The notes under the pieces are model-generated. The model did no database searches. It was given only the letters and a program-made list of their open reading frames with translations, and was not told the origin of the DNA. Shown here piece by piece: positions 51,011 to 51,492 of a DNA stretch of 64,000 bases (the stretch's first letter is position 1; each line of letters starts with the position of its first letter). This DNA comes from a virus (Duplodnaviria; Heunggongvirae; Uroviricota; Caudoviricetes): the IMG/VR virus record IMGVR_UViG_3300001798_000005, one strand, 5' to 3'. The translations under genes were made by a program, and so were the position numbers.

Positions 51011-51346
51011 ATGAAAAACCACGCGGAAATTTATCAAGCACTTTTGGATGGAAAAAAATTGACGTTCTCTCAAAAATCCTACGTCTGGCTCGAAGACGGA
51101 ACCCTTGTCAATCAGGCCGGCAACTGCCCAGAGAGCAACTTTTTATTCCCGGAAGACTGGGAAATCTACAAAGAGCCCAAAAAGAGCCTGACTTATGAGG
51201 AAGCGATTGCTTGCCGAAAGGTGAGGATCGTGTGGCCGAATGGGTGTGGGCAGGTTGTGGACCGCAATTCTGGAATGGATTGGGCGCTGACTCGCTTTGA
51301 CCTTGCCGAGCGCCGTGGGTATTTGATGGAGGAGGAGGTGGAGTGA
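51011..51346 (+). CDS. hypothetical protein
   Basis: GGAG-N5-ATG. Confidence 0.45.
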   Translation: MKNHAEIYQALLDGKKLTFSQKSYVWLEDGTLVNQAGNCPESNFLFPEDWEIYKEPKKSLTYEEAIACRKVRIVWPNGCGQVVDRNSGMDWALTRFDLAERRGYLMEEEVE

Positions 51347-51492
51347 TAATCTGTGATTTTTGCTTTAAATCGCAGTACGCAGTCAAACTGCTTATAGCAG
51401 GGCCAAATGTGATGATTTGCAATGCATGTGTGGATATTTGCAATGAAGTTGTGGCGGAACACGCCAAGGAAGGGACGAAAACCAATGACTGA
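51343..51492 (+). CDS. ClpX N-terminal zinc-finger (zf-C4_ClpX)-like micro-protein, 49 aa
   Basis: GGAGGAGGAGG SD then GTG; [30 protein letters not shown] closely matches the ClpX ZBD pattern C.FCGK....KLIAGP.V.IC.EC...C. Confidence 0.55.
   Translation: [49 protein letters not shown]

Follow-up and report, generated by a model that had tools for sequence, protein, structure and literature searches.

We examined a window of 64,000 nucleotides (nt) from the Caudoviricetes virus recorded in IMG/VR as IMGVR_UViG_3300001798_000005, and in it a 49-residue open reading frame (ORF) whose product, here called the micro-protein, is a free-standing domain of the type found in the ClpX unfoldase, where it serves as the zinc-binding domain (ZBD). 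The features at this locus are as follows.

51011..51346, plus strand: upstream gene of 111 residues, the first of a rightward block, with no function assigned (gene model; no family match)
51328-51338, plus strand: Shine-Dalgarno (SD)-like run GGAGGAGGAGG, read in the sequence, 4 nt before the GTG
51343..51492, plus strand: gene of the 49-residue micro-protein, a free-standing ClpX-type ZBD (ORF with GTG start; Pfam, PHROG and PDB matches; AlphaFold2 (AF2) model)
51352-54, 51361-63, 51418-20 and 51427-29, plus strand: codons of the predicted zinc ligands C4, C7, C26 and C29 (alignment to ClpX ZBD)
51485..52012, plus strand: downstream gene of 175 residues with a DUF551-like C terminus (phrog_924, 1.7e-9; PF04448 weak, E=0.0046, below the cutoff)

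A first-pass annotation of this DNA had placed a 49-residue ORF at 51343-51492 behind a strong SD, and we found the ORF exactly so, with GGAGGAGGAGG lying 4 nt ahead of its GTG and doubling as the codons for EEE at the C terminus of the upstream 111-residue protein. An in-frame TGA stands at 51298-51300, and the GTG at 51343 is the first start codon after it; 49 residues is therefore the maximum length of the micro-protein. This GTG overlaps the TGA stop of the 111-residue gene (GTGA), and the ATG of the 175-residue gene (51485) overlaps the stop of the 49-residue gene by 8 nt (ATGACTGA), so that the gene is translationally coupled to both neighbors in a classic arrangement. A frameshift at the upstream junction was considered and rejected, as GAG-GAG-GAG followed by GTG-GAG-TGA holds no slippery heptamer and GTGA is ordinary termination-reinitiation coupling. 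The same phage was also assembled independently (Logan SRR6213120, 57.5 kb), and there the 49-residue gene is identical and an independent gene caller returned the same 111-, 49- and 175-residue gene models. A promoter scan gave no signal beyond shuffle expectation.

Sequence comparison put the resemblance of the micro-protein to ClpX far above chance. It matched PF06689 (zf-C4_ClpX) at E=1.3e-13 and 51.1 bits (gathering cutoff 27) over profile positions 2-39 of 39, and when phmmer was run against PDB sequences ClpX was the only protein returned, with the Escherichia coli ZBD structures at E=2.6e-13 to 5.6e-11 and the best match, at E=2.6e-13, being 1ovx (the E. coli ClpX ZBD, a dimer solved by nuclear magnetic resonance). 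Identity to the E. coli ClpX ZBD covers 23 of 43 aligned residues (53%). The cysteines C4, C7, C26 and C29 correspond to E. coli C15, C18, C37 and C40 with identical CxxC-18-CxxC spacing, and these four zinc ligands were invariant in all three alignments that we built; from the sequence, we infer that the micro-protein binds zinc.

The AF2 model of the micro-protein, made from a 41-sequence alignment, has short strands, a helix at residues 27-42 and a disordered tail at 43-49. In a Foldseek search of the PDB, the top 8 matches were all ClpX ZBD at probability 1.00, including 2ds6, 1ovx, 2ds8, 2ds5, 2ds7 and the N terminus of a CLPX model, and the following match had E>1. Isolated ZBD chains gave root-mean-square deviations of 1.9-2.0 Å over 37-39 residues and target-normalised TM-scores of 0.66-0.73. 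The first-pass annotation had named cysteine spacing incompatible with the ZBD fold as a reason to abandon its assignment; the spacing proved compatible, the model superposing on 2ds6, 1ovx and 2ds8 at 1.9 Å with no other significant match. By profile score, cysteine motif and predicted fold, the micro-protein thus belongs to PF06689, and it would probably dimerize like the ClpX ZBD, by analogy with that domain. The same annotation had it that the ORF nearly reproduces the ClpX ZBD, which holds for spacing, fold and Pfam assignment and is overstated for the sequence, given 53% identity and nine invariant or near-invariant residues changed, H23Y among them.

The micro-protein is a ClpX domain and no ClpX enzyme. 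The NCBIfam ClpX models (TIGR00382 / NF003745) scored it at 36-39 bits versus cutoffs of 359-371, with model positions 7-51 alone aligned, and membership in ClpX fails because the ORF ends at 49 residues, the downstream gene is DUF551-like and there is no AAA+ module. The earlier remark that an AAA+ module is missing was borne out at both neighbors, one a 111-residue protein of unassigned function and the other the DUF551-like protein, and the phage encodes no ClpP and no AAA+ ClpX. Compared with the ZBD of ClpX itself (PF06689; 1OVX, 2DS5-2DS8), the micro-protein has the same C4 spacing, core and predicted fold (beta-hairpins and a C-terminal helix), but it lacks the linker and AAA+ ring, and so is unable to unfold proteins, and its first residue lies at the domain boundary, leaving no N-terminal tail.

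We then mapped the residues through which ClpX binds its partners, numbering them as in E. coli ClpX with Met1 counted, so that F16 and I46 of PMC7804408 (mature-protein numbering) are F17 and I47 here. The F16/I46 patch of ClpX is the docking site of lambda-O, SspB, RssB and trigger factor (PMC7804408), and the MqsA degron docks on L12, L13, H23 and A30, overlapping the SspB site, with H23A defective in retention of that degron (PMC8808172). In the micro-protein F17 corresponds to F6, A30 to A19, I47 to V36 and L12/L13 to M1/I2, and its hydrophobic core and zinc knuckles are fully preserved (F17, V25, L28, I29, A30, G31, P32, V34, I36, V41, C44 and N45). The H23 position is occupied by Y, as it also is in the ZBD proteins of coliphages P88 and PhiR41_1.

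Catalogues of phages and metagenomes already contain many proteins with a ZBD and no AAA+ module, which the first-pass annotation had not noted, and by its sequence the micro-protein falls within this catalogued, functionally uncharacterised class. With tblastn we found such ORFs in coliphages P88 and PhiR44_2 (110 residues), D6 (106 residues) and PhiR41_1 (107 residues) and in Pseudomonas phage Alize (109 residues), and shorter ones in BUCT566 and PSA04 (65 residues) and in Caulobacter phage Cr30; true full-length ClpX is found in jumbo phages such as phage G, where it adjoins a ClpP-like gene. Three PHROG families matched the micro-protein: 6797 ('unknown'; E=2.6e-15, with the C-terminal 41 of 107 positions alone aligned and the N-terminal extension absent), 12435 ('protease'; E=1.6e-8) and 5259. 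The best structural match in BFVD was a 65-residue 'Clp protease' of Pseudomonas phage PP9W2. Database names of phage ZBD proteins ('carboxylate-amine ligase', 'Clp protease', 'ClpX') are automatic and typically wrong.

The catalogued phage proteins (PHROG 6797/12435/5259; P88 gp19, D6 orf93, PhiR41_1, Alize, BUCT566 gp74, PP9W2, Cr30) are, like the micro-protein, ATPase-less and phage-encoded, and their genes share its early or accessory location, with neighbors of the ea22, eaA or DUF551 type and start and stop codons that often overlap. The gene order in D6 is ead/Ea22-like, ZBD and then metallophosphoesterase, and in PhiR41_1 it is ea22, ZBD, eaA. The coliphage proteins differ from ours in their length of 106-110 residues and an N-terminal helical extension of ~60 residues, and the Alize protein in a C-terminal extension, whereas the micro-protein is a bare 49-residue domain, the shortest version among those compared. 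Its neighbors do not provide a P88-type N-terminal or an Alize-type C-terminal extension in trans. We also considered a split or frameshifted P88-type protein, consisting of N-terminal extension plus ZBD, and discarded it because the upstream ORF is unlike the P88, D6, PhiR41_1 and Alize extensions.

Identity to the E. coli ZBD is 23/43 for the micro-protein, 30/39 for D6 orf93 (77% over 39 aligned residues, as against 53%) and 19/43 and 21/41 for the Pseudomonas phage proteins, so that by sequence some phage ZBDs appear to mimic the host domain closely and others to have diverged considerably (44%-77% identity). A protein labelled Pseudomonas aeruginosa ClpX (P0249) was dropped as the Pseudomonas reference, its N terminus being almost identical to E. 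coli ClpX. In Cr30 (NC_025422 81470-81709; locus 1932-2171) the annotated 41-residue gp170 (locus 2046-2171) begins inside the ZBD, and the open frame runs further upstream and takes in the first CxxC (…TLYCSFCGKSHREV…); gp170 was probably deposited with the wrong start codon.

When 1.84 billion cluster representatives were searched exhaustively with phmmer, 7,444 matched at E<=1e-3, true ClpX counted in, and the top of this list was made up mostly of AAA-less proteins with 1-6 tandem ZBD units and varied extra regions. Among the matches listed, the closest single-ZBD relative was a 59-residue protein (P0147) with 57% identity, which adjoins xis/int in an unrelated temperate-phage contig and has the same unusual D at S16 and M at Y35. 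The 264 proteins that we retrieved included 150 with 2 ZBD units, 15 with 3 and 14 with 4. Metagenomic AAA-less tandem-ZBD proteins (2-6 units) are many and are often 90-110 residues long with exactly two units; two such units could pair within one chain as the ZBD dimer does between chains, and we found no study of them in the literature searched.

Close relatives of the micro-protein are scarce, and its gene is a sporadic accessory gene, because the ZBD ORF was absent from 111 TerL-related loci (80 from IMG/VR and 31 genome loci; 35-59% TerL identity; flanks up to 10 kb, many of them shorter, with the syntenic position included where the contig reaches it). A peptide-pattern search found no close relatives in IMG/VR or JGI metagenome contigs, and near-identical copies were limited to the window's own contig, the Logan SRR6213120 assembly and one JGI contig of 238,674 bp. 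Homologues of the upstream 111-residue gene in other contigs were followed by unrelated genes and no ZBD gene, so synteny gives no functional link between the pair.

Of the mechanisms that we weighed, the most likely, at a rough probability of 0.4 and by analogy with known systems, is that the micro-protein acts as a competitive decoy, or anti-adaptor, for ZBD-dependent ClpXP degradation. It would be made from the accessory block by translational coupling behind its strong ribosome-binding site, fold around one zinc, dimerize as the ClpX ZBD does and display the hydrophobic docking patch of that domain. In this way it would sequester SspB- or RssB-type adaptors, or N-domain degrons of the lambda-O, MuA or MqsA type, meant for the ZBDs of the host ClpX hexamer, such that ZBD-dependent degradation would be switched off selectively and substrates recognized by the pore (ssrA tags) would be spared. 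The first-pass annotation had suggested titration of adaptors or substrates, heterodimerization with ClpX and protection of phage proteins as possible roles, and these are plausible. The gain to the phage, which is speculative, might be stabilization of a phage protein or prevention of ClpXP-triggered antitoxin loss and abortive infection (cf. MqsA, PMC8808172). That the micro-protein binds adaptors or substrates of the host, and that the phage gains by it, we infer. High expression, which a stoichiometric decoy would presumably need, would be in keeping with the strong SD and the GTGA/ATGA coupling.

The decoy reading is supported by the homology, the domain-only architecture, the compatible fold, the accessory context and the partly conserved docking residues, and by the retention of AAA-less ZBDs among the early or accessory genes of several independent phages (P88, D6, PhiR41_1, Alize, BUCT566, Cr30 and the P0147 contig). 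The groups of Houry, Sauer and Baker are likewise reported to have found that the free N-domain competes for lambda-O, MuA and SspB. What makes the decoy the best mechanism is inhibition by free ZBD in vitro: purified E. coli ZBD added in trans at 5-20 μM inhibited RssB-mediated sigma-S degradation by 0.6 μM ClpXP, the free ZBD dimerized (as judged by cross-linking) and cross-linked to RssB, and ClpX without its ZBD lost RssB-dependent sigma-S degradation and retained ssrA degradation (PMC7226468). That isolated domain is an ATPase-less ZBD, as the micro-protein is, and its dimerization, RssB binding and competitive inhibition of adaptor-mediated sigma-S degradation are the mode of action proposed for the micro-protein, but it is a laboratory construct of host sequence used at 8- to 33-fold excess and not a natural viral gene (PMC7226468).

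A natural counterpart is known for another protease. In mycobacteria, a homologue of the ClpC1 N-domain that exists as a separate protein, ClpC2, acts as a sponge for ClpC1 ligands (PMC10030653); it resembles the proposed decoy in being a detached unfoldase docking domain that competes with the full enzyme for ligands, and differs in fold, in protease, in being chromosomal and in having an antibiotic or phosphoarginine as its known ligand (PMC10030653).

Phages and bacteria also make small blockers that act on an ATP-dependent protease or its adaptor and thereby stabilize selected proteins: T4 PinA and T7 Gp4.5 are phage inhibitors of Lon, and IraD, IraM and IraP are E. coli anti-adaptors. To our knowledge, none of these is related to the micro-protein in sequence or fold, mimics a protease domain or is aimed at the ClpX ZBD.

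Several observations weigh against the decoy reading. Identity to the E. coli ClpX ZBD is just 53%, and nine changes fall at positions invariant or nearly invariant in ClpX (S16D, G19F, H23Y, E24A, K27L, Y35M, D38N, E39A and R49A), as judged from a sample of ClpX N termini that is apparently mostly gammaproteobacterial. As H23Y is among them, docking specificity may be altered or lost. The micro-protein begins at the L12-equivalent residue, which leaves the L12/L13 part of the pocket at its extreme N terminus. The ClpX and adaptors used as reference are those of E. coli and may differ from those of the phage host. Confidence in the AF2 model is moderate (pLDDT, the predicted local distance difference test score, 69.6). 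Among the best 150 of the 7,444 phmmer matches there was no ClpX-length protein with a single N-terminal ZBD, and identity to the micro-protein was at most 58%. Inhibition by the E. coli ZBD took an 8- to 33-fold molar excess (PMC7226468), and in the literature searched, with journals outside the search possible, we found no functional study of any free phage ZBD or of a phage ClpX inhibitor.

The altered surface leads to the first alternative, that the micro-protein is a zinc ribbon independent of ClpX, its fold co-opted as a small dimerization or peptide-binding module for some other phage or host protein, such as a regulator, with ClpXP unaffected. This is on the unlikely side and is nevertheless a serious possibility, because of the enormous diversity of the domain outside ClpX together with the altered surface. 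Beyond the 7,444 clusters at E<=1e-3 (true ClpX included) and their mostly AAA-less top, the ZBD also occurs in fusions with cyanobacterial sigma factors (PMC11119718), the micro-protein differs from ClpX at surface positions that ClpX conserves, and the phage versions bear unrelated N- or C-terminal extensions and range from 44% to 77% identity to the E. coli ZBD. Against such use, the docking residues F17, A30 and I47 are retained, as are hydrophobic residues equivalent to L12/L13, ClpX accounts for all of the best matches in sequence and structure, and we found no alternative partner or function documented for a stand-alone ZBD.

A second alternative keeps ClpX as the target and changes the mode of action: the micro-protein would heterodimerize with the ZBDs of host ClpX, break the three native dimers and alter the substrates accepted, either inhibiting the protease or redirecting it to a substrate that the phage wants removed. 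Dimerization is obligate for the ClpX ZBD, and the free domain can be cross-linked as a dimer (PMC7226468). Residues of the core and C-terminal helix (V25, L28, I29, V34, I36, V41, C44, N45 and, with a change, I47V) are conserved in the micro-protein, and the abundance of tandem-ZBD proteins (150/264 with 2 units) suggests that ZBD-ZBD pairing is a recurrent selected feature. Such poisoning or retargeting is nonetheless unlikely: native ZBD dimers would be held at very high local concentration in the hexamer, making invasion by a free monomer unfavorable, the micro-protein should prefer its own homodimer, and it has no second domain with which to deliver cargo.

That the gene is a nonfunctional remnant, either a decaying 5' fragment of a captured clpX or an untranslated ORF, we consider very improbable: the ORF is very short, a single sequence variant is available from two identical assemblies (so that purifying selection is not measurable) and the gene is missing from all 111 TerL-related loci, but the four zinc cysteines and whole hydrophobic core are intact with a full-length Pfam match, the SD is precise, as is the translational coupling to each neighbor, no sequence like the ClpX linker or AAA+ module lies downstream, and the single-ZBD relatives, one of 59 residues and 57% identity that shares S16D and Y35M in an unrelated temperate-phage contig and others of 65 residues in cultured Pseudomonas phages, argue for a maintained micro-protein lineage.

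Returning to the competitive decoy, the homology is solid, and the decoy function is a hypothesis absent from the literature searched. The fuller proposal, that the micro-protein is a natural viral anti-adaptor that shuts off N-domain-dependent ClpXP proteolysis during infection by mimicking the docking domain, is tentative, with the odds somewhat against it; candidate targets are substrates brought by adaptors, a phage protein of replication or regulation, and an antitoxin such as MqsA. ClpXP governs much that is relevant to phages, such as the turnover of lambda-O and MuA, the stability of antitoxins and the level of sigma-S, and many of these need the ZBD specifically, so a detached viral ZBD, if it is a decoy, would be a very economical means of disabling the ZBD-dependent branch of ClpXP. 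It would also be the first phage ClpXP inhibitor to work by domain mimicry, would give a function to the large unstudied class of AAA-less ZBD proteins and would explain their recurrence in phages and metagenomes, and the 49-residue module could become a genetic tool for switching off adaptor-dependent ClpXP degradation. The hypothesis fits coliphage P88 gp19 and D6 orf93 equally well, and these are better placed for it, as the host ClpX, adaptors and substrates are known. At present it is a testable hypothesis on well-established homology and does not describe a new kind of element.

The remainder of the phage provides the genomic setting. Bases 1-3985 of the window are the same as 60016-64000, so the window holds a circular contig of 60,015 bp and runs on past the point where the circle closes; its opening 200 bases turn up again at 60016, and its final 200 are first seen at 3786. 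We found packaging and structural genes (terminase, Mu-type portal, major head protein, tape measure, J-like tail protein and prohead protease) and genes of replication and DNA handling (primase, two helicases, a Cas4-type exonuclease and a T5 A1-like protein), a gene content that marks the genome as that of a siphovirus-like phage. The genes scanned included no integrase, the genome has no tRNAs, and megablast found no near relative in INPHARED. The further features of note are these.

41549-42562, minus strand: prohead protease (Peptidase_S78_2), also with an unconfirmed precomputed PF23474 'Acb1' match on the Logan copy
46789-48354, minus strand: 521-residue homologue of T5 A1 / 'DNA transfer protein' (phrog_1745, E=7.5e-124)
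49458-49769, minus strand: 103-residue protein with a candidate Rmf/CrpP-like fold (weak PF04957 match of the C terminus, E=0.002, 18.6 bits, cutoff 27.9)
51011..57511, plus strand: block of small accessory genes, the 49-residue gene second (co-directional; diverges from the leftward packaging/structural block)
52367-52936, plus strand: DNA methyltransferase-like gene in the accessory block (phrog_757, E=3e-52)
53382-53798 and 54087-54560, plus strand: Ea22-like apparent paralogue pair (common N terminus MLTNEEL.AI and internal LLAHITEQ motif; phrog_1667 for the second)
54553-55131 and 56156-56884, plus strand: two metallophosphoesterases in the accessory block (phrog_547, E=6e-45; PF00149 precomputed on the Logan copy)
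58242-58898, minus strand: second DNA methyltransferase-like gene (phrog_498, E=2.5e-14, with the N-terminal third of the profile alone aligned)

Judged by these genes, the neighborhood of the micro-protein appears to be of the accessory, host-takeover kind, as for the coliphage ZBD proteins. Genes of the Ea22-like type also flank the ZBD gene in coliphages D6 and PhiR41_1, and in D6 a metallophosphoesterase lies a few genes past the ZBD gene. No restriction-enzyme partner for the two methyltransferase-like genes was seen among the genes scanned. Relatives of TerL and of the A1-like protein are scattered over Proteobacteria, Bacteroidota, Chloroflexota and even archaea. The gene for the 521-residue A1 homologue sits between a terS-like gene (48971-49387) and TerL, and along most of its length the protein shares 32-40% identity with proteins of Xanthomonas/Stenotrophomonas jumbo phages and of Shewanella and cyanophages.

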